The notes beneath the pieces were generated by a model that ran no database searches, had not been told where the DNA came from, and was given only the letters and a program-made list of their open reading frames with translations. This document shows, piece after piece, positions 3,296 to 57,092 of a stretch of 64,000 bases of DNA. A program made the position numbers and the translations under genes. Position 1 is the stretch's first letter. Every line of letters begins with the position of its first letter. The stretch covers positions 1 through 64,000 of IMG/VR virus record IMGVR_UViG_3300027759_000003, one strand, 5' to 3'. The DNA is from a virus.

Positions 3296-6200
3296 ATGGC
3301 CAACCCGTCTAACTTATATGCAGAAAAGATATTTTCTGAGCATCCTCTGGCGCTATGGGCTTTGGATCAAACTGTTGACTATATAAGTTTATTTGATTTA
3401 GATTATCAAGATATTCAAAATTTTTGGACGGTAAGTGGGGCAACCGCCTCTTTAGAAACATCAGATGTAGACGCACCATTTTCTACAGTAGAAGTAAATA
3501 AATTATTAGGAACTGTCCCTGCAGGAGCAACTGCAGATATTGTTTGCATCAGCCCAGAGTTAGTAAACTTTTCAGACTTAAATACAGATCTTGGTACATT
3601 TTGTGTAGGTGCTCACATATACGTTGACAGCGTACACATAAACTCTATATCTATTGGGTTTGAATACACAGACACAACAACAGCAAGTGTAGTTCAAAAA
3701 TTAAAAACTTATGAAAATCTTACAGAAAATTCTTGGGTTTTCGTTTCACAAACTTCAGAAATAGTCAGTGAGAATACAACACTTAGGGTTGTAATAAAAA
3801 TAACTTCTGAAACTGGTGGAGCAACATCTTCTGACTACTTGTACTATATAAATGGAATTAGTGTTGGTCAATGGTCTGAAGAATTTAACTATCAATCACT
3901 TGGGGTTGTCCCAATATCAATGCCAGCAACAATAGCATTAACTTCAGATCAAGTAATTCCTTCACCAGCCTACGGAGTGTCTGGAGAAAATGCCTATCAT
4001 ATAGTTTCAGACAATAGTCTTTTTGCAAAAAATACAAGCATACCTCTTGTTTATGGAGCATCAAATATAACAACTCTTAGAGCAAATCCTAGCGGAGAAC
4101 CATCTTTAATTGTTCCAGGAAAAGGTTTTTTAAATAAAGTTGGTCAATATAAAGACTATACCGTAGAGTTTTGGGCAAGAATAAACTCAGACTCTCCTAC
4201 ATCTAAAAAAATATTTGGTCCAATAGCATCAGAAGATGGGGTTTATGTTGATAACGGGTTTCTAACATTAGTAATAGGTAAAAACTTTTCATCTCATTTT
4301 GTTGGAGAGTGGTTTAGACCAATGCTTATTCAGATTAGATTAATTAGGAATGCTGCAAGTTTAATTTTAAATGGAGAAGAAATTATATCTTTAACAATTG
4401 AAACAGATAATCTTGAACTACCAGAAGAGTATAATCAATCAAATAAAAACCAGGACTGGCTAGGATTTTATGCATATGATGATATTACTCCAATTGATAT
4501 AGATTGTGTTGCTATTTATTCTTATCAGGTTCCTATAAATGTAGCAAAAAGAAGATGGGTTTATGGACAAGGAGTTATTTCTCCAGAGGGTATTAACTCT
4601 TCTTACGGAGGAACATCTGCATTTATTGATTATTCTTTTGCAGATTACACCGCCAACTACAGTTATCCAGATTTTGCTGAATGGCAACAAGGGTCTTTTG
4701 ATAATTTAACAACAACAGCAAAAGTTTTAAGAACTCCTGAATACGAACTTCCAGAAATTTTTTTATCAGATAAAACTTTAACCGAACTGTATGAAGATAA
4801 TAAATCAATTCAAAATAGTGTTTCTGGACCAATTGATGATGAAACCTTTATAACCTTTAGGCCTAATAGTTCTTGGAATACAAAAACTTGCTACCTTAAC
4901 TTTGATAATTTTAATATTCTAAATACTAAGGTCGATTGTTTTTACGGTGTATTTAGTAATCACAACCTTAACTCTAATCAAACTTTATTTAAAATTTATA
5001 ATTCTTTAAACAATAATTATTTTTCAATTCAGCAAAATCAAAATGTAATTACCTATAACCTATACTATAACGGTGTCAATCAAGTAATCTATACATCTGA
5101 AGTTATTGAATCCCATCAACTATTTTCTGCAGGTATTAATATAGAGTTATTAATAGAAACTTTTGGCGGAAATGTCTCTACGTTTTTTGGTAGTCGAAAT
5201 TCACTTAAAGTTTATATAGGTGGAGATGGTTCTTTAAGCAAAACCTTTTTAGGAAAAATGTATTCTGTTGGATTTGCTACAACAAAAAATACAACCCTTA
5301 TATCTGATTATTTTAATTCTGAAGGTATAGCAATTTTTGACGACATGTCTGTTTCTGGTATCACAGAAGAAGAGAATGCTATTGCATTATTCAATCATTT
5401 ATCAAGTTACACTCTACTACCTATAGAAAATTATGATTCTTACTTTTTAGATATAGGCGTCTCTGGATCTTGGCAAGACTATCTCCCGCTTTCTTATTTT
5501 GCTCAGTTTGTAACCAATGACGTTGGCAATCAATTTTATGATTTAGATTTTTTACAGTTTAACGTAGGCGTTCCGTCACCAACATCTTTAATAGAAAATG
5601 AAACTGTTTCAGCCTGGACTTACGCAGATTTATATCAAAATTATTTTCAACCAACTCAACAAACATACTATCAGTTTGACAATCAACTGCTAACTGGATG
5701 GAATAATTACGAAGATGCCAATCAAGAGGCTGTAAAAACTTATGAATATGACACCACAGACTCTGCAGTTAGATGTTATTTAACTTTTCAATATATTGAA
5801 GATGGTGCTAACTTATTAGATAGTGATTTTACCATTACTCAACCAGTTTTACGTGACTCCATTATTGATGTAAATGAATATGAAAATTGGGAAACAACAA
5901 AGTTTGAAGTTGTAAATAATGCAATAGTTTATCCAAGTAAAACTGTAGATTTTAATGATCTAGCAATTGTTTATCATTTAGAATTTAAAGTACGAGGAAT
6001 ATTACATAAACCAATTCTATTAAATAGACTTCAACTTGCTTCTCAAGCATTTAATGATAACTCGTTTAATCCTGTTGGAACAAGATTTGGGGTTGACTTA
6101 TTTCCTTACAAGCGTTCAGGAATCTATTATGACTATAAATCTAAAAATCCTTTTACTATTTATAAAGGCACTACGCCATATCTTTATTTAACAAAAGACT

Positions 6201-6931
6201 CTGGAATTCAAGTTCGTGGAGATATTCTTTCTTTAGAAGATCGTGGTATTTCTTTACCAATAAATCAGGCATTGTCTTCAGATTATCTTGTTAGTGCAGT
6301 ACAACTTTGGCTTAGATATTCAGAAGATGAATTTCCACCAGTTCCAACAGAATTGTTTGAGATTATTTACAAGGAAGATACCTTTAAATTTTACATAGTA
6401 GCAGATAGTGACACTGGATCAAGAGCAAGAGTTTTTGCAAAAAGTCTTTCAACTGGTCAAATAGTTGATGATTTTCAATATTATTGGAATGGTTTAGAAG
6501 TTAGAGAGCCAGTCTTTACTTCTAAAGAGTGGGGAGTCCTTGGAATATTTTTTTCTACCGCACTTAATTTTGATGAATTTTTAGGATCAATTAATATTAA
6601 TGGTCCCGTGCTGTTTAATAATGTGGCATACTATCAAGCAAATAATTTACAACAAATTCAGGGAACAGTTACAAGACCTTGGCTTAGGGTAAAAACAGAG
6701 GATGCCATTAACTTTACATGGTCTTATTGGCAAACAAATAAGACTTGGTATGAAACATTGGTCATAGGGTCATCAAACCTGTATGGAGTAAGTCCAGGAG
6801 ACATCTATCGAGCATACCTAGGCACTAATAAAATAATATTTGATGATGAAAGTGGTTTAAGTGTAGACTCAGACAAAATGCAAATATATCAAGATGTAAC
6901 TTGGTCAACGACTGTCGCTTCAGCCCTATAA
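3296..6931 (+). CDS. Large virion structural protein with LamG/concanavalin-like beta-sandwich domain(s)
   Basis: 1211 aa, aromatic and beta-rich; N-terminal HPLALWALD and YTVEFWARIN are LamG-like motifs; next to the head module. Confidence 0.6.
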   Translation: MANPSNLYAEKIFSEHPLALWALDQTVDYISLFDLDYQDIQNFWTVSGATASLETSDVDAPFSTVEVNKLLGTVPAGATADIVCISPELVNFSDLNTDLGTFCVGAHIYVDSVHINSISIGFEYTDTTTASVVQKLKTYENLTENSWVFVSQTSEIVSENTTLRVVIKITSETGGATSSDYLYYINGISVGQWSEEFNYQSLGVVPISMPATIALTSDQVIPSPAYGVSGENAYHIVSDNSLFAKNTSIPLVYGASNITTLRANPSGEPSLIVPGKGFLNKVGQYKDYTVEFWARINSDSPTSKKIFGPIASEDGVYVDNGFLTLVIGKNFSSHFVGEWFRPMLIQIRLIRNAASLILNGEEIISLTIETDNLELPEEYNQSNKNQDWLGFYAYDDITPIDIDCVAIYSYQVPINVAKRRWVYGQGVISPEGINSSYGGTSAFIDYSFADYTANYSYPDFAEWQQGSFDNLTTTAKVLRTPEYELPEIFLSDKTLTELYEDNKSIQNSVSGPIDDETFITFRPNSSWNTKTCYLNFDNFNILNTKVDCFYGVFSNHNLNSNQTLFKIYNSLNNNYFSIQQNQNVITYNLYYNGVNQVIYTSEVIESHQLFSAGINIELLIETFGGNVSTFFGSRNSLKVYIGGDGSLSKTFLGKMYSVGFATTKNTTLISDYFNSEGIAIFDDMSVSGITEEENAIALFNHLSSYTLLPIENYDSYFLDIGVSGSWQDYLPLSYFAQFVTNDVGNQFYDLDFLQFNVGVPSPTSLIENETVSAWTYADLYQNYFQPTQQTYYQFDNQLLTGWNNYEDANQEAVKTYEYDTTDSAVRCYLTFQYIEDGANLLDSDFTITQPVLRDSIIDVNEYENWETTKFEVVNNAIVYPSKTVDFNDLAIVYHLEFKVRGILHKPILLNRLQLASQAFNDNSFNPVGTRFGVDLFPYKRSGIYYDYKSKNPFTIYKGTTPYLYLTKDSGIQVRGDILSLEDRGISLPINQALSSDYLVSAVQLWLRYSEDEFPPVPTELFEIIYKEDTFKFYIVADSDTGSRARVFAKSLSTGQIVDDFQYYWNGLEVREPVFTSKEWGVLGIFFSTALNFDEFLGSININGPVLFNNVAYYQANNLQQIQGTVTRPWLRVKTEDAINFTWSYWQTNKTWYETLVIGSSNLYGVSPGDIYRAYLGTNKIIFDDESGLSVDSDKMQIYQDVTWSTTVASAL

Positions 6932-6949: not shown

Positions 6950-7321
6950 ATGAATAACGATATTCTTAAAAAAGTTGGTAATGTCCGACGCAAAGTAATA
7001 GAAAAAGACTACAATTGGGGTCTTTACGTGTACAAAAAGTCAGATGGTTCATGGTTTACAGATGGCTCTGGCAGCATATTAAACATACCAGCAGAACGTG
7101 GTGATATTACAAAAATTTCAGAATTAAAAAAAGTTGCCATTCATTACGGTGATGACGGTGAAGGAAGTGCAGTATTTGTTCCTGGACTTACAAGAATTAG
7201 CGAGGAAGAGCATTCTGAACAACTAGATAGAATGAAGAATGGCTTAATTCCTTCCATGAATGATCATGGTGCTTGGGTAGCAGCACGACAAACCTATGAT
7301 AAGTATGGTAGCAATGAGTGA
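6950..7321 (+). CDS. Hypothetical protein immediately upstream of portal
   Basis: ORF track 6944..7321; start moved to 6950 to fit the promoter; overlaps the portal start. Confidence 0.75.
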   Translation: MNNDILKKVGNVRRKVIEKDYNWGLYVYKKSDGSWFTDGSGSILNIPAERGDITKISELKKVAIHYGDDGEGSAVFVPGLTRISEEEHSEQLDRMKNGLIPSMNDHGAWVAARQTYDKYGSNE

Positions 7322-8909
7322 AGAATTCGTAAGAGTTGGATTAAACACACAAGAAAAAGATGGCAATCCATTTTCACAACAAGATCCATTTAATAAAACT
7401 TGGGATGCATTAAAAGATTTTACAGGATTAGAACAAAATTTCCGTAGGAAAACCGCAAGGAATGTTACAAAGGCAATGACCTATGCAACAAATGAATATT
7501 TAGATTCTGCTAACTCTACACCATCTGGAGTAGATGCAGGATCAAAGGCTATTAATCCTGGCACGGTATATAGAAATGGTTACGGACTATTTGACGTAAT
7601 TACTCCTCCATATAACATGTATGAGTTAGCCAACTTCTATGACACATCATTTGCTAATCATGCTGCTATTGATGCTAAGGTAGAAAACGTAGTTGGTCTT
7701 GGATATCGTTTTGATATTGCAGATAGAACAATGCTTAGGTTTGAAATGAGTGAAGATCAGGCAGCAGTTGATCGTGCTCGTAACAGAATTGAAAGAATGA
7801 AACTTGAGTTAAAGGATTGGCTAGAAAACCTTAACGATGATGATTCATTTACTAAGACTATGGAAAAATTTTATACAGATGTTCAGGCAACTGGTAATGG
7901 GTTTATTGAAATTGGTAGAACTGTAACTGGTGAAATTGGCTACGTTGGTCATATACCTGCAACCACTGTTCGTGTTCGTCGTTTACATGATGGCTTTGTT
8001 CAGATTATTGGAAACTCAGTAGTTTATTTTAGAAACTTTGGTGCTAAAAATCCAAACCCAATGACTAATGATGCACGTCCAAATGAGATTATTCACTATA
8101 AAGAATACTCTCCATTAAATACATTTTATGGTATTCCAGACATTGTTGCTGCTATGCCATCACTTATTGGTGATCAATTAGCCTCACAATACAACATTGA
8201 CTATTTTGAAAACAAGGCAGTTCCTAGATACATCGTAACCTTAAAGGGTGCAAAATTATCATCTGATGGTGAAGATAAGATGTTTAGATTTTTACAAACA
8301 GGCCTGAAATCTCAATCACATAGAACTCTTTATATCCCACTTCCTGGAGATACCGAAAGTAACAAGGTTGAGTTTAAAATGGAGCCAATTGAGAATGGTA
8401 TACAAGAGGGGTCATTTAAAGAGTATCGCAAGCAAAATCGTGATGATATTCTAATTGCACATCAAGTTCCAATTTCTAAACTTGGTGGGGCAGATTCTGG
8501 AATTGCAGCAGCCTTATCACAGGATCGTACCTTTAAAGAGCAGGTATCTCGTCCAGCACAAAAGCATCTTGAAAAGGTTGTTAATAAGATTGTTCGTGAA
8601 AAGACAGATATTCTTGAACTTAAATTTAACGAACTAACCCTTACAGATGAGATTGCTCAATCTCAAATTATTGAGCGCTATGTAAAAACACAGGTTATGA
8701 CTCCAAACGAGGCTCGTGAAAAGTTAGATCTTCCACAAAGAGCCGATGGAGATGAGCCATTTGTTATGTCTGCAAGACAGGCAACTGACACAAGGGCTAA
8801 TTTGGCAGGGAATCGTCAAAGAGATGCAGAACGAACAAATAACAATTCTGACTCTACTACAACCATCTCTGGTCGTAATGCACAGGGTGAAGGTCGCTCA
8901 TCTCAATAA
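7314..8909 (+). CDS. Portal protein
   Basis: Portal-type motifs DVQATGNGFIEI, EIIHYKEYSPLNTFYGIP, YFENKAVP, MTPNEAREKLDLP; position before protease and capsid. Start taken as MSEEF at 7314. Confidence 0.9.
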   Translation: MSEEFVRVGLNTQEKDGNPFSQQDPFNKTWDALKDFTGLEQNFRRKTARNVTKAMTYATNEYLDSANSTPSGVDAGSKAINPGTVYRNGYGLFDVITPPYNMYELANFYDTSFANHAAIDAKVENVVGLGYRFDIADRTMLRFEMSEDQAAVDRARNRIERMKLELKDWLENLNDDDSFTKTMEKFYTDVQATGNGFIEIGRTVTGEIGYVGHIPATTVRVRRLHDGFVQIIGNSVVYFRNFGAKNPNPMTNDARPNEIIHYKEYSPLNTFYGIPDIVAAMPSLIGDQLASQYNIDYFENKAVPRYIVTLKGAKLSSDGEDKMFRFLQTGLKSQSHRTLYIPLPGDTESNKVEFKMEPIENGIQEGSFKEYRKQNRDDILIAHQVPISKLGGADSGIAAALSQDRTFKEQVSRPAQKHLEKVVNKIVREKTDILELKFNELTLTDEIAQSQIIERYVKTQVMTPNEAREKLDLPQRADGDEPFVMSARQATDTRANLAGNRQRDAERTNNNSDSTTTISGRNAQGEGRSSQ

Positions 8910-8931
8910 TTGAGATAAGTGTAATAATATT

Positions 8932-8940
8932 TGGTATAAT
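8932..8940 (+). promoter_or_regulatory. Extended -10 promoter (TGGTATAAT)
   Basis: Consensus match 10 nt upstream of ATG 8951. Confidence 0.65.
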
Positions 8941-8950
8941 GGATAACGAT

Positions 8951-10270
8951 ATGTTAATAAATAAGGCTCATTGGGAAACTACTGGCGACAGCGTTCGCCT
9001 ATCAATGCCTATTGGTAAAATAGACATAGAGCGTCGTATGGTTTCTGGTTTTGCTACTTTAGATAATATTGATAAGCAAGGCGACATCGTAACAACAGAG
9101 TCAAGCGTTGAAGCATTCAAAAATTTTAGAGGAAACTTGCGTGAGATGCACCAACCATCCGCAGTTGGAAAAATTGTATCATTTAAAGAAGATCGTTATT
9201 TTGATCCATCAGTTAAGAAGTTTTATAGTGGAGTATACGTTTCAGCATATGTTTCAAAAGGTGCACAAGATGCATGGGAAAAGGTTTTAGACGGAACATA
9301 CAAAGGTTTTTCTATTGGCGGTAACATTAAAAATTGGGACGATGCATACAACGAAGAACTAAGCAAAACTATACGTGTAATTAAAGAATATGATTTATTT
9401 GAGTTGTCGTTGGTTGATAATCCTGCAAACCAATTTGCAAACATTGTATCTATTGAAAAAGTAGATGGTAAAAATGTTGTTGGTGGATATCTTTCAAAGG
9501 CAGAAATTGAAAATGTGTTTTGGGATTCAGAAACTGGAATTGTTATGGTATCAGAGTCTGAAAACGAAACAAGCCCTACATCAGGAAAGGCAATGCAAAA
9601 CATTGGCTTTATTGAAAAGGGAGACAAGAATAATACAGAAACAATAAAGTTCTTAGTTGATAGTGCTAAAGGCATTAGTACAATTAAGATTACAAAGGAG
9701 GTTAGTCCTATGACTGAAACAACAGAAGCAGTGGTTGACACTGCAGTTGAAGAAGTACAGGTCGCTCCAGAGGCACAGCCAGTAGCAGTTGAAGAAACTG
9801 TTGCAGTTGCTGAGGAGGCACCAGCAGTTGAAGAACTTGCTCTTGCTAAATCTAGCGATGGTAGTGCAGATTCTTCTGTTGAAAAAACAGAAGAGGGAGA
9901 AGTTGTTGCAACTGAAACTGTTGTAGCAAAGTCTGATGAAGTAATTGTTGAGGCAGTTACAGAAATCAAAAATTCTCTTACAAATGCCTTTGGCGATTTA
10001 GCAACAACCGTTAAGTCTCTTCACGAGCAAATTGTTGCATTGAGTAAGTCTCTTGACACCGTATCAGGTGAGGTTAAGACCGTATCTGATGAAGTAAAAA
10101 ATGTAAAGGGAGTTTTTAATGAGTTTGGTAAGCGAGTAGATCTTGTAGAACAAGACACCGCTTTCCGCAAGTCTGGCGATCTAGGCGAGATCGTGCAGTT
10201 TGAACCGTCAAAAGTTCAGAAATCCCTATGGGGCGGTCGTTTCCTCACATCAACCGACCTATTTAACTAA
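8951..10270 (+). CDS. Prohead (capsid maturation) protease fused to acidic/coiled-coil scaffold
   Basis: VSGFATLDNIDKQGD, LREMH, YKGFSIGG and ELSLVDNPAN are HK97-type protease motifs; Glu/Ala/Val-rich linker then heptad region; C-terminal QKSLWGGRFL. Confidence 0.9.
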   Translation: MLINKAHWETTGDSVRLSMPIGKIDIERRMVSGFATLDNIDKQGDIVTTESSVEAFKNFRGNLREMHQPSAVGKIVSFKEDRYFDPSVKKFYSGVYVSAYVSKGAQDAWEKVLDGTYKGFSIGGNIKNWDDAYNEELSKTIRVIKEYDLFELSLVDNPANQFANIVSIEKVDGKNVVGGYLSKAEIENVFWDSETGIVMVSESENETSPTSGKAMQNIGFIEKGDKNNTETIKFLVDSAKGISTIKITKEVSPMTETTEAVVDTAVEEVQVAPEAQPVAVEETVAVAEEAPAVEELALAKSSDGSADSSVEKTEEGEVVATETVVAKSDEVIVEAVTEIKNSLTNAFGDLATTVKSLHEQIVALSKSLDTVSGEVKTVSDEVKNVKGVFNEFGKRVDLVEQDTAFRKSGDLGEIVQFEPSKVQKSLWGGRFLTSTDLFN

Positions 10271-10298
10271 AGTAAAAAATCACTAGGAGGTGAAAATA

Positions 10299-11450
10299 AT
10301 GTCGGAACAAAATAAAGACCTAGAAAAGAACTACCCAGGATCAGGCGGAGCAGGCAATGAGATTAACTCTCAAGGCGGATTCGTATCTGGTGGCGTAGGT
10401 AGTGCTACTGGTTTAAACTCTGCAGCAGCGTCTGTAGGATCACAACTTGGTAACACTGCAACTGCAGCATTCGGATCAACATCTGGAGACAATGCAGTAA
10501 ACCCAACAGGCGTCGCAGGTGGTATTCTAGCACCAGAACAAGCACGTCGCTTCATCGACTATGTGTGGGATGCAACAGTTCTCGCTAAAGATGGTCGTAG
10601 AGTTACAATGCGTGCCAATACAATGGAGATCGAAAAGGTCAACGTTGGAGAGCGTGTTATCCGTGCAGCCGCACAAGGCGCACCAGATTACACAAACATT
10701 GGTGCAACATTCTCAAAGGTTGAATTAACTACCAAAAAGATTCGTCTTGATTGGGAAGTATCAACTGAAGCACTAGAAGACAATATTGAAGGTGGAGCAC
10801 TTGAAGATCATTTAGTTCGCTTAATGACCAATGCATTCGCTAACGATATTGAAGACCTTGCAATTAATGGTCTAGGAACAGGCGCAGATGCCTTCCTTTC
10901 CATCATGCCTGGCTTTGTTAAGCAAACTCGTTTGACAGCAGGAAATGCTGCTCACGAATATGCTGCAACAGTTGCAGACAACAACTACACCACATCAGTA
11001 ATGCAAGGCTTGCTATTAGCAATGCCTCGTAAGTACCGTGCACTTAAGAGCAATCTTAAGTTCTATGCAGGTACTGATGCTTTTGCTGGTATTGTTCGCA
11101 ACAACGGTACACTAGCAGATGCTATTTCATCAGCGTTCTCAGATCGCACTGGTAGCACTCAAGCAAATCGTCAAGATTATCTTGATGGCACAGCACAAAC
11201 ACTAGGTAATACACGTACAACTCGTGTACTTGGTGTAGATGTTCTAGAAGTTCCTTACTACCCTGCAGGTTATGTTGATTTAACATTCCCTCAGAACCGT
11301 GTATGGGGTTTCCAAAGAGACATCACTGTAAACCGTGAATACAAGCCAAAGAAAGATACAATTGAGTACACAGTATTTGTACGCTTTGGTATCCAATGGG
11401 AAGAACTAGATGCAGTCGCTTATGTTGACTCAGATAGCGCTGATTCCTAA
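10299..11450 (+). CDS. Major capsid protein (HK97 fold)
   Basis: Strong SD AGGAGGTG; GGILAPEQARRFID, EALEDNIEG, FANDIEDLAING; followed by a terminator. Confidence 0.92.
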   Translation: MSEQNKDLEKNYPGSGGAGNEINSQGGFVSGGVGSATGLNSAAASVGSQLGNTATAAFGSTSGDNAVNPTGVAGGILAPEQARRFIDYVWDATVLAKDGRRVTMRANTMEIEKVNVGERVIRAAAQGAPDYTNIGATFSKVELTTKKIRLDWEVSTEALEDNIEGGALEDHLVRLMTNAFANDIEDLAINGLGTGADAFLSIMPGFVKQTRLTAGNAAHEYAATVADNNYTTSVMQGLLLAMPRKYRALKSNLKFYAGTDAFAGIVRNNGTLADAISSAFSDRTGSTQANRQDYLDGTAQTLGNTRTTRVLGVDVLEVPYYPAGYVDLTFPQNRVWGFQRDITVNREYKPKKDTIEYTVFVRFGIQWEELDAVAYVDSDSADS

Positions 11451-34850: not shown

Positions 34851-35507
34851 ATGAGCGTAGTAAAGGGACTAAAAAATATAAATGCCCTGCTCGAAAAACC
34901 AAAATATGATGAAAACTCTCCAAAGGTAAGATGGTTAAAAATTGCCGATGGACAAGCAGTAAAAATCCGTTTCATTGAAGAACTAGATGAAGACTCTGCA
35001 AATTATAATGCAGACCGTGGTCTTGCTCTAGTCGTTAAGGAACATACAAATCCAAAAGACTACAAGCGCAAGGCTGTAGACACAATGGAATCAGAAGGTC
35101 GTGACTGGGCAGAAGAAATGCATCGCAAAGATGTAAAGGCTGGCTGGAGAGCACGTCTTCGTTTCTATTGCAATGTTTTAGTCGACGATGGCATTGAAGC
35201 ACCGTATGTGGCTATTTGGTCAATGGGTGTTAGCAAGCAATCAGCATTTAATACAATTCGTGAGTATGCACTTGAAACAGGTAGCATCTCAAACGTAGTC
35301 TGGAAAGTAAAGCGAAATGGTCAGGGTACTGAAACAAGTTACACAACCATTCCAGGTGCACCAGATACAGAACCATTTGACTGGTCAGCATTTAAGCCTT
35401 ATCCTCTTGAGTTAGCATTAAAGAAAATTCCTTATGCTGAACAAGAAGCATTCTACTTAGGCTTTGACGGTCCAACAACTTCATCTGCTACCAACGTAGA
35501 CTGGTAA
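34851..35507 (+). CDS. Single-stranded DNA-binding protein (gp32-like)
   Basis: Between primase and polymerase; VKIRFIEEL, WKVKRNGQGTETSY; C-terminal aromatic (NVDW). Confidence 0.7.
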   Translation: MSVVKGLKNINALLEKPKYDENSPKVRWLKIADGQAVKIRFIEELDEDSANYNADRGLALVVKEHTNPKDYKRKAVDTMESEGRDWAEEMHRKDVKAGWRARLRFYCNVLVDDGIEAPYVAIWSMGVSKQSAFNTIREYALETGSISNVVWKVKRNGQGTETSYTTIPGAPDTEPFDWSAFKPYPLELALKKIPYAEQEAFYLGFDGPTTSSATNVDW

Positions 35508-55165: not shown

Positions 55166-55493
55166 CGAAGAAGAAAAAATAATTGAAAAACTTATTCTTG
55201 ATGGTGGATTAGAAACTGTAGGGGTTGACCAAGAAACTGGAGAACTTTTATACTCTTTTACTCCTAAGATTAAAAATCTTATGCCTAATTTATATAATGA
55301 GCACATAACAGATGTTAATTCTTGTGTTATGAAATTATGGGAAAAGGGGTTTTTAGAAATAGATTTCTTTGCTTCAGAACCCATTATTACCCTATCTGAA
55401 AAAGCCTTTGATCGTGATGCAGTAGAGGGTTTATCTAAAAAAGACAGGTGGAATCTTTTTGAAATCATACGGCTTTTGAATCCTAAAACCTGA
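55158..55493 (+). CDS. Hypothetical protein
   Basis: ORF track; start at MNNEEE overlapping the thioredoxin stop. Confidence 0.7.
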   Translation: MNNEEEKIIEKLILDGGLETVGVDQETGELLYSFTPKIKNLMPNLYNEHITDVNSCVMKLWEKGFLEIDFFASEPIITLSEKAFDRDAVEGLSKKDRWNLFEIIRLLNPKT

Positions 55494-55499
55494 TATAAT
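55491..55499 (+). promoter_or_regulatory. Extended -10 promoter (TGATATAAT), no -35
   Basis: Same class as the structural-gene promoters; SD AGGAGG before 55523. Confidence 0.7.
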
Positions 55500-55522
55500 C
55501 TATATATAGCCTAGGAGGTTTT

Positions 55523-56326
55523 ATGTCAGTAAACGAAGATAAAAATGTGCCAATCTCAAAATCAATGGTAGCAGAGGGTGACTTTGTTATGTTTGTTCAT
55601 GAGGATGATGGCATTATGGCTGGTCGTATTGAATATGTTATGACTAATCCTGGTTTACTTGGTCTTCCTGGTTCTGAATACTCAATGGAATATGCTGAAG
55701 ATGACAAACCAGTTATTGTTCGTGCTTATAAAGAAGAAGATGGCGCATGGGAAGAACAGGCATATGTTTTTTATCATCGCATGTCAGAAGTTATAAAAAT
55801 TGAATCACTATCTGTTTCAGTTGACATGGTTGTAGAAATGGGATCAAATGGAACTGGTATTCCAACAATCCCATCGCAATCTGATATGGAAAACATGTAT
55901 GCTGTTCAGGTAAGCAAATCCTACAACTCAGATAATGAAGATGAAGACAAGTGGGACAATATGACAAAAGCATGTTGGGTTGGATATGAACAACGTGGCA
56001 TGAAAGAAAAAGGTGGACGCATGGTTCCTAATTGTGTTCCTGTTAACAAACTAAAAGAAATGGAAAATGAAATGGCAAAAGCAAAACCTAATTATGGAGA
56101 TTTTATTAAACCACGTAGGGGTGGATCAACACCATCAGATCCTAAACTATATGCAAGAGTTGTGCAAGCAGCAAAAGATAAGTTTGACGTTTATCCGTCT
56201 GCAGTAGCAAATTCTTGGGTAGTACAAGAATATAAGCGTCGTGGCGGTACATACAAATCAGAGTCACAATCTACAACAAAAAGTATTTGGGATGGATCTT
56301 TTAATCCTTTAAGGTTTGAAAAATAA
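55523..56326 (+). CDS. Modular hypothetical protein, candidate internal head (cargo) polyprotein
   Basis: Modules separated by xxK-S/A sites; CWVGYEQRGMKEKGGRMVPNCVP and YPSAVANSWVVQEYKRRGG modules; C-terminal KSIWDGSF. Confidence 0.65.
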   Translation: MSVNEDKNVPISKSMVAEGDFVMFVHEDDGIMAGRIEYVMTNPGLLGLPGSEYSMEYAEDDKPVIVRAYKEEDGAWEEQAYVFYHRMSEVIKIESLSVSVDMVVEMGSNGTGIPTIPSQSDMENMYAVQVSKSYNSDNEDEDKWDNMTKACWVGYEQRGMKEKGGRMVPNCVPVNKLKEMENEMAKAKPNYGDFIKPRRGGSTPSDPKLYARVVQAAKDKFDVYPSAVANSWVVQEYKRRGGTYKSESQSTTKSIWDGSFNPLRFEK

Positions 56327-56466
56327 TGACAAAGAAAAAAACAACAGCATTCAATCCTACACAAATAAAAAATGGTAGGATTGTTCGTTTAAGAAAAGAC
56401 GGTACCATAAAAACAGATCTTGGTCCGTATCCAAAAACAAAGGCAGGGGTAACTAATGGCAAATAA
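56326..56466 (+). CDS. Small basic protein (46 aa, not in ORF track)
   Basis: MTKKKTTAFNPTQIKNGRIVRLRKDGTIKTDLGPYPK...; TAATG-coupled. Confidence 0.65.
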   Translation: MTKKKTTAFNPTQIKNGRIVRLRKDGTIKTDLGPYPKTKAGVTNGK

Positions 56467-56566
56467 AGAACAAAAAGGTAATGCTAATACAAAAAAAGAG
56501 CCTAAGATGACTCTTAAAGAAAAACGTGTTGCTAAACAACAAAAACGGGATAAGAAAAATGGCTGA
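56456..56566 (+). CDS. Lys-rich peptide (36 aa, not in ORF track)
   Basis: MANKEQKGNANTKKEPKMTLKEKRVAKQQKRDKKNG; SD AGGGG; overlaps both neighbours. Confidence 0.6.
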   Translation: MANKEQKGNANTKKEPKMTLKEKRVAKQQKRDKKNG

Positions 56567-56930
56567 TACATACACTCCTACTTCTGGTATGAAGGCTGCT
56601 GCTCGTCGTGCATTGAAGTGGAAAGAAGATGGTAAGGCAACTGGCGCAGGAACTCCAGTAGGCTGGGGTCGTGCAACTGATATTGTAAATGGATCAGCAA
56701 TGTCTCTTAGTACTGTTAAAAGAATGTTTTCTTTCTTTTCCCGTCACGAAGTAGATAAAAAAGGCAAAGGTTTTTATGATGGTCCAGAGTTCCCTTCTAA
56801 CGGCAGAATTATGTGGGATGCTTGGGGTGGTGATGCAGGATTTTCATGGAGCCGTGCAATTGTGGAAAGAGAAAAAAAACAAGTAGAAAAGGTTTGGGCA
56901 GATAGCCCATTTAATTTAAGGAAGGGGTAA
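56559..56930 (+). CDS. Basic hypothetical protein, candidate internal head protein
   Basis: PTSGMKAAARRALKW..SLSTVKRMFSFFSRH..WDAWGGDAG; C-terminal EKVWADSPF. Confidence 0.7.
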   Translation: MADTYTPTSGMKAAARRALKWKEDGKATGAGTPVGWGRATDIVNGSAMSLSTVKRMFSFFSRHEVDKKGKGFYDGPEFPSNGRIMWDAWGGDAGFSWSRAIVEREKKQVEKVWADSPFNLRKG

Positions 56931-56933
56931 AAA

Positions 56934-57092
56934 GTGGAGGACTTAACCATTGAAGAAGTAAAACAATTAGTTGTATTTTATAAACAAAAATCTTCAGATC
57001 TTGAGTTTAATTTATTGCAAATGCAAATAAAGTTAAATAGGACTATGTCTGTTGAAAATTCAGTAGAAGCAAAACCAGTAATTAAAAAGTAG
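56934..57092 (+). CDS. Small coiled-coil protein (52 aa, GTG start, not in ORF track)
   Basis: VEDLTIEEVKQLVVFYKQKSSDLEFNLLQMQIKLN; SD AGGGG. Confidence 0.6.
   Translation: MEDLTIEEVKQLVVFYKQKSSDLEFNLLQMQIKLNRTMSVENSVEAKPVIKK

Follow-up and report, generated by a model that had tools for sequence, protein, structure and literature searches.

A C-terminal tail shared by the protease-scaffold and two modular proteins of a phage genome is a candidate capsid-addressing tag

How tailed phages choose the non-structural proteins that they package is known for few systems, namely the T4 targeting sequence, the Dar proteins of P1 and covalent fusions to MuF or portal proteins. The C-terminal tail of the HK97 gp4 prohead protease is reportedly sufficient for encapsidation, and C-terminal fragments of the P22 scaffold have been used to load foreign proteins into P22 capsids. 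In T4, a short capsid targeting sequence sends the non-structural proteins IPI-III and Alt into the prohead; the prohead protease cuts this sequence off, and the cargo proteins are injected along with the DNA (PMC5512222). Packaging and injection are likewise generally assumed for domains fused to MuF or portal (PMC5512222). In the 80alpha scaffold the coat-docking part is the final 16-21 residues, which CpmB of SaPI1 mimics at the same coat site (PMC5644958). Here we analysed a 64,000-nucleotide stretch (the window), the first 64 kb of the 109,757-bp virus record IMGVR_UViG_3300027759_000003 of IMG/VR, in which a short C-terminal tail of the prohead protease-scaffold recurs on two further proteins, encoded by open reading frames (ORFs) A and B:

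8939-10270, + strand: prohead protease (S78)-scaffold fusion, 443 amino acids; tail KSLWGGRFL at 10220-10246, then TSTDLFN
55523-56326, + strand: ORF A, 267 amino acids, a beads-on-a-string protein; tail KSIWDGSF at 56279-56302
56559-56930, + strand: ORF B, 123 amino acids, a five-helix domain (phrog_2859, 5.4e-33) followed by the tail KVWADSPF at 56889-56912

The protease-scaffold ends in ..VQKSLWGGRFLTSTDLFN, with the codon of K428 beginning at 10220, ORF A in ..TTKSIWDGSFNPLRFEK and ORF B in ..VEKVWADSPFNLRKG. The common peptide K-x(0-1)-[ILV]-W-x-[GD]-x(1-2)-F, with its W placed 10-12 residues from the end, occurs three times in the 109.8-kb genome, once on each of these proteins. Six-frame searches of the window and of the whole genome with the expression K[ST]?[ILVM]W.[GDS].{1,2}F returned these three matches only, each stopping 5-8 residues before the C-terminal end. 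The first-pass annotation had placed the tails at these positions and had seen the K..W..F terminal peptide on no other protein of the window; all three coordinates were verified and the second statement proved valid for the entire genome. Residue shuffling (300 rounds, 952 ORF segments of at least 40 amino acids) produced on average 0.32 matches at any position and 0.05 no more than 10 residues from an end, and three terminal matches were obtained in none of the 300 shuffles. The tail observation is confirmed and lies far beyond chance. Since the pattern was defined after the data had been seen, conservation in relatives provided the independent check. A fourth candidate, at genome positions 75730-75912 on the - strand with the end ..SFWADDFLNQAYL, was rejected; it is a 60-codon stop-to-stop segment of the early region and lacks the Gly.

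Related contigs in IMG/VR number in the hundreds. Across 240 such loci the tail was retained in 76 scaffold, 143 A and 155 B homologues, and the distinct homologues carrying it were 50, 74 and 89, respectively. The W is invariant among them, G and F are nearly invariant and the flanking residues are variable. In nearly all homologues the W lies 9-12 residues from the end, and alignment on this residue gave the consensus K-S-L-W-G-G-R-F-L for the scaffold, K-[SNT]-I-W-[DGN]-G-[SA]-F for A and K-[VAI]-W-x-G-[ST]-[AP]-F for B; in each of the three families a Lys precedes W by 2-3 residues. Conservation of the C-terminal motif in related phages, on which the first-pass annotation had made its proposal depend, was thus found for the homologues of all three proteins. 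A loose version of the pattern was terminal 367 times in the 12,008 ORF segments of the 240 loci, and 362 of these 367 belonged to homologues of the same three proteins. Three further near-complete genomes (scaffold identity 61-85%) displayed the same tail-bearing trio and nothing else credible, and family members as distant as 60% identity still have nearly the same scaffold tail.

The fixed residues of the tail have changed their codons freely (four codons for Gly, two for Lys, both AGY and TCN for Ser), and this synonymous turnover demonstrates selection on the peptide; the tail is under protein-level selection. As codon usage differs among the scaffold, A and B tails, they are not recent DNA copies of each other. 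In the most divergent complete relative (IMGVR_UViG_3300009161_000003) the B homologue, at 35035-35469 on the - strand, carries two tandem tails (..SAFSL..KSLWDGSAFRFTKH).

Scaffolds of more distant phages end in related tails. Those of the Streptomyces phages Tomas and Wakanda, whose protease domains are about 50-55% identical to that of the window, end in ..SKWGGHFL.. and ..SKWGGRFL.. (form WGG[RH]FL), and that of the Rhodococcus phage Trina (about 42%) ends in ..KSKFQGLFSG.. (KFQGLF), a weaker form in which F replaces W. The scaffold tail is old. A protein search for scaffold tails at greater distance returned only near-identical proteins, and the contig of a distant tail-bearing protein (L296, with a relative of P0232), a 30%-complete fragment, gave no S78 match. 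Two proteins were considered as tail-bearing cargo in these phages and discarded, the HIT protein of Tomas (..PWSGQHFK) and an endolysin-like protein of Trina (..QWSGYAFD, phrog_102), their resemblance to the tail looking like chance.

The protease-scaffold gene belongs to a group of head genes at 7296-11450 (portal, S78 protease-scaffold fusion and major capsid protein), which are similar to those of Streptomyces BE-type and Rhodococcus phages. The other two members are:

7296-8909: portal (PF04860 at 1.9e-28)
10290-11450, + strand: major capsid protein, 386 amino acids (phrog_1623 'virion structural protein', 3.6e-71; phrog_10 'major head protein')

The protein encoded at 8939-10270 matched Pfam Peptidase_S78 (PF04586) with 25.8 bits (cut-off 21) and phrog_9427 'head maturation protease' at 6e-112 across amino acids 6-440. 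Its domain exceeds the curated threshold, which places it among the HK97-type S78 proteases; ORFs A and B fall outside this class. The order portal, protease-scaffold, major capsid protein is the one expected for an HK97-type S78 system, and the major capsid protein gene lies directly 3' of the protease-scaffold, as in the Streptomyces BE-type phages. The major capsid protein at 10290-11450 is the presumed docking partner of the tail.

ORFs A and B are part of a tight operon with two tiny basic ORFs and a coiled-coil ORF, in which stops and starts overlap and which is conserved in relatives. Its remaining features are:

55491-55499 and 55513-55518, + strand: extended -10 word TGATATAAT and Shine-Dalgarno site AGGAGG, 5' of ORF A
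56326-56466, + strand: very basic ORF of 46 amino acids without the tail; its start overlaps the ORF A stop; homologue in 150 of 160 related loci
56456-56566, + strand: very basic ORF of 36 amino acids without the tail, overlapping both neighbours; present in 93 of 160 related loci
56934-57092, + strand: coiled-coil ORF of 52 amino acids, in frame with B and separated from it by TAA and one codon; present in 91 of 160 related loci

ORF A comprises an N-terminal beta domain (about amino acids 15-96), an acidic linker, a Cys-Trp (CW) module CWVGY..PNCVP (about amino acids 145-176), a DUF5872 domain (amino acids 204-249) and the tail. Pfam returned DUF5872 at 5.8e-6 and several PHROGs matched the CW module. 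The AlphaFold2 model contained two folded parts, with linkers and tail at a predicted local distance difference test score (pLDDT) below 50; the CW..PNCVP module fell within a long low-confidence linker and DUF5872 formed a helical pair. Among 28 homologues the modules are gained and lost as clean indels, and the dipeptides K-S and K-A occur at the module borders. The first-pass annotation had described ORF A as modular with such dipeptides at its borders, preceded by a strong Shine-Dalgarno site and a promoter of the class used by structural genes, and each of these elements was recovered. The word TGNTATAAT occurs 11 times on the + strand and never on the - strand of the window, and 23 versus 4 times in the genome, many copies lying directly 5' of structural genes. 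Co-expression of the ORF A operon with the head and structural genes is plausible from this distribution. The same word often stands 10-30 nucleotides 5' of the Shine-Dalgarno site of + strand genes, and the - strand blocks (59.5-64 kb and 75-88 kb) are largely without it.

The ORF B model reached a pLDDT of 89.5, decreasing from 55 to 43 along the tail, which contained no helix; the tails of both A and B are predicted to be disordered. The best Foldseek hit of the ORF B fold against PDB had an E value of 1.9, and a wide VIA-align comparison gave a best Z of 5.0, within the noise range for helical models. At the sequence level a PDB search returned nothing, Pfam and NCBIfam sub-threshold matches only, and the ESM Atlas unnamed viral clusters only. 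No family was matched by the 46- and 36-amino-acid basic ORFs, whose products may bind or condense DNA. In the metagenomic proteins P0002 and P0105 (forms of about 180 amino acids) the stop codon is replaced by a sense codon, so that B and the coiled coil are one protein, and the in-frame pair at 56934-57092 raises the question of stop-codon read-through here.

The ORF B domain has 3,623 homologous clusters and is a widespread mobile module. In 126 diverse proteins its partners within the same polypeptide were Hva1_TUDOR (17), Peptidase_S78 (11), DUF5872 (8), Phage_Mu_F (7), ADP-ribosyltransferase (4), Ferritin (3), Phage_portal (2), Phage_capsid (2) and zeta toxin (2). Fusions to NUDIX and HAD phosphatase domains were also seen in metagenomic proteins (alignment A1). 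The Ferritin, ADP-ribosyltransferase, zeta toxin, NUDIX and HAD phosphatase enzymes are candidate packaged enzymes, and the Ferritin fusions are reminiscent of encapsulin cargo. In cultured viruses the domain is found in head-module proteins of five kinds: at the N-terminal end of the protease-scaffold of Vibrio 1.122.A, on protease-like proteins adjoining the major capsid protein of Vibrio 1.270.A and Limnohabitans DC31, inside the portal-MuF protein of HRTV-4, in proteins annotated 'capsid' of S-CBS1, S-CBS3 and the Roseobacter CRP phages, and in a large protein directly 5' of the protease of DSL-LC01. Since other viruses carry the B domain as a covalent part of their prohead protease, MuF, portal or capsid proteins, its destination is taken to be the capsid interior. 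Its recurrent fusion to MuF, portal or protease in head modules places B among the packaged accessory domains, a group to which the A modules are tied only indirectly, through their fusion with B in the same polypeptides.

The A modules and B recombine in many metagenomic proteins, and the tail closes about 30 of 149 diverse B-containing representatives, in which the module preceding it is of at least six kinds (B, DUF5872, the CW module, DUF5824, Cys-rich segments and an RRARALG..LP..W module). Polypeptides that join A modules and B carry a single tail, always at the C-terminal end, and when B is internal it is followed by K[AS]LF..FGKDY instead. In the window the modules are divided over two genes, both of which encode a tail. 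An address signal that depends on position would be expected to occur in this way, once per polypeptide and at its end.

Further modules of this kind also occur. The module HI.RRA.ALG....LP..W(K) recurs at or near the C-terminal end of the B-containing proteins P0121, P0135, P0140, P0161, P0169 and P0210 and also inside the DSL-LC01 protease-scaffold (L003 5575-8130), and in several proteins the W-x-G-x-F tail comes directly after it. A four-Cys module, VW[GI]GYE..C..C......C......C, stands at the C-terminal end of the same DSL-LC01 protease (L003 5575-8130) and at the N-terminal end of P0142 and P0208, and belongs to the same shuffling pool. In the DSL-LC01 protease it opens with a WGG motif like that of the scaffold tail, and a neighbouring DSL-LC01 gene, annotated as high-potential iron-sulfur protein, has a Cys-rich segment resembling it.

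These data, namely the domain fusions, portability, disorder and selection together with the scaffold precedent, suggest that the tail is probably a portable C-terminal capsid-addressing tag that copies the coat-docking tail of the scaffold. The peptide K-x(0-1)-[ILVA]-W-x-G-x(1-2)-F, whose W stands 10-12 residues before the C-terminus, would act as a short linear docking motif, and in the scaffold it would anchor the protease-scaffold on the inner face of the assembling HK97-fold shell; binding of the coat protein we infer by analogy. The A and B domains would be small domains that enter the capsid in other phages as covalent fusions with protease, MuF, portal or coat protein. Since A and B bear the same tail as the scaffold on capsid-delivered domains, they could take scaffold sites on the coat protein and become enclosed in the prohead. 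That the S78 protease sets A and B free, by cutting at the Lys immediately preceding the motif and at the K-S/K-A borders, is speculative: HK97-type proteases cleave after Lys (K103/S104 in gp5), and this, together with the Lys before W and the K-S at the borders, only suggests such cleavage. Equally speculative is that the cargo pieces reside with the DNA and are ejected into the host.

The first-pass annotation had proposed that A and B are loaded into proheads through a copied scaffold peptide. The proposal is borne out in part, by evidence that is indirect yet converges: the peptide is shared with the scaffold, conserved, selected, terminal, predicted to be disordered and portable, the B domain is associated with capsids elsewhere and the promoter word matches. 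The copying is not a recent one at the DNA level, as the codons differ. A broader claim, on which we consider the balance to be even, is that a widespread phage lineage possesses natural modular addressing, whereby any polypeptide ending in about 12 residues of the form K-x-Phi-W-x-G-x-F would be loaded into the prohead and a small pool of cargo domains would be shuffled behind one tag. A full-text literature search found no description of the tail motif or of the A and B domains as capsid cargo.

Several observations weigh against capsid addressing by the tail. A distance of 45 kb separates the A and B genes from the head module, and their neighbours are nuclease and thioredoxin genes. In some relatives B is fused in frame to the downstream 52-amino-acid ORF, and the tail is therefore internal. 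In P0067, P0118 and P0119 the tail is replaced by the internal K[AS]LF..FGKDY and the ends are tail-less; hence not every family member needs the tail. The free-standing B protein of S-CBS4 shows no resemblance to the tail of its own scaffold, and in Tomas, Wakanda and Trina neither a B homologue nor a convincing tail-bearing ORF was found despite their related scaffold tails.

Compared with the described systems, encapsulin loading offers a functional analogy: a short, disordered C-terminal peptide, carried by diverse and otherwise unrelated cargo, acts in a portable manner on the interior of an HK97-fold shell, and Ferritin-like domains are among the partners of the B domain. The motifs differ, since encapsulin consensus peptides are Gly/Ser/Leu-rich, such as ..GSLKG. 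Moreover, an encapsulin shell is an HK97-fold protein that lacks portal, tail and packaged genome, whereas the shell gene considered here belongs to a full set of phage head and tail genes that includes portal and protease. The container is a DNA-filled phage capsid with its portal and protease, and the tag matches the tail of the scaffold itself. In HK97 gp4 and the P22 fusions, the tail is that of the protease itself or part of a laboratory construct, whereas here natural unrelated proteins appear to use it.

SaPI1 CpmB is likewise a second protein whose C-terminal peptide is homologous to the coat-binding tail of a scaffold and occupies the same site on an HK97-fold coat (PMC5644958), a sharing of sites that we infer for A and B. 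However, CpmB comes from a phage parasite and redirects capsid size, whereas the mimics described here are the phage's own and have cargo-like bodies. CpmB and the 80alpha scaffold also use a helix-and-hook with RIIK; the tails of this genome read W-x-G-x-F (K-S-L-W-G-G-R-F and variants), have no RIIK and, in the AlphaFold2 model of B, no helix, and so do not belong with them. The T4 signal is N-terminal, about 10 residues long, of other sequence, binds the scaffolding core and is cut at L/I-x-E by a gp21-type protease; the peptide found here is C-terminal and the protease is S78, not gp21-like, thus setting it apart from T4-type targeting, for which cleavage and injection are proven and here conjectural. 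In the MuF-, portal- and protease-fused effectors (polyvalent proteins and MuF toxins), small accessory domains, that of ORF B included, reach the capsid by covalent fusion (PMC5512222; PMC5576092), whereas the domains of this locus are free-standing and a peptide tag would replace the covalent link. The tail would work like encapsulin loading and CpmB mimicry and is a member of neither family.

Four other explanations were weighed. The tail might serve the prohead protease domain as a signal for recognition or cleavage, or mediate contact between scaffolds, instead of binding the coat; A and B would then be protease substrates or scaffold partners. The Lys preceding W in all three families, the fusion of the tail-bearing scaffold itself to the S78 protease and the K-S/K-A at the ORF A module borders all agree with this; nevertheless we regard it as unlikely. 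The Streptomyces phages have a Lys directly before W (SKWGG), so that the position of the Lys is not fixed. The present data fit binding to the coat and binding to the protease alike, and this explanation would still put A and B inside proheads.

A and B could alternatively be assembly modulators that compete with the scaffold for coat sites in a CpmB-like manner, tuning scaffold occupancy or capsid geometry instead of being delivered as passengers. CpmB, the only experimentally proven scaffold-tail mimic, acts in this way (PMC5644958), and A and B are small, B possibly oligomerising through the coiled-coil ORF when fused to it. In contrast, the B domain is elsewhere fused to MuF, portal and toxin-like enzymes, partners characteristic of proteins that are packaged and then injected (PMC5512222). 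The modules are also very diverse and freely shuffled, unlike a dedicated scaffold, and modulation is, in our judgement, a distinctly improbable account of A and B.

We rate as similarly improbable that the tail binds a non-capsid partner (a host chaperone, a protease or an export factor) and that the scaffold carries it for that reason. W-x-G is reminiscent of the WXG motif in actinobacterial type VII substrates, and the A and B genes are far from the head module, among metabolic genes. On the other side, there is no known reason for export of a protease-scaffold, the motif is terminal and not within a helical hairpin, the fusions of the B domain indicate the capsid and the tail is retained in the scaffolds of distant phages.

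That the resemblance is due to chance, or is a functionless relic of shared descent, is scarcely credible: the motif is short and was defined after being seen, but three terminal matches never arose by shuffling, W is invariant in more than 200 distinct homologues, whose conserved residues have switched between synonymous codons, and there is one terminal tail per polypeptide irrespective of the last module.

If capsid addressing by the tail is correct, a sequence-defined tag identical with the scaffold's own tail would provide a simple predictive rule, by which packaged proteins could be read from the genomes of a very abundant group of freshwater phages. It would link phage scaffolding to encapsulin cargo loading on their common HK97 fold, with a possible relation to the origin of encapsulin loading, and would supply a natural peptide, transferable to foreign proteins, for loading phage-derived capsids. 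It would also assign a likely location, the capsid interior, to phrog_2859, DUF5872, the CW..PNCVP module and Hva1_TUDOR-like domains.

Finally, an ORF of 1211 amino acids was noted at 3296-6931 of the window (+ strand), two genes 5' of the portal. Pfam and PHROG searches with this ORF gave no match; it is preceded by its own TGCTATAAT word and could encode a large head-associated protein.

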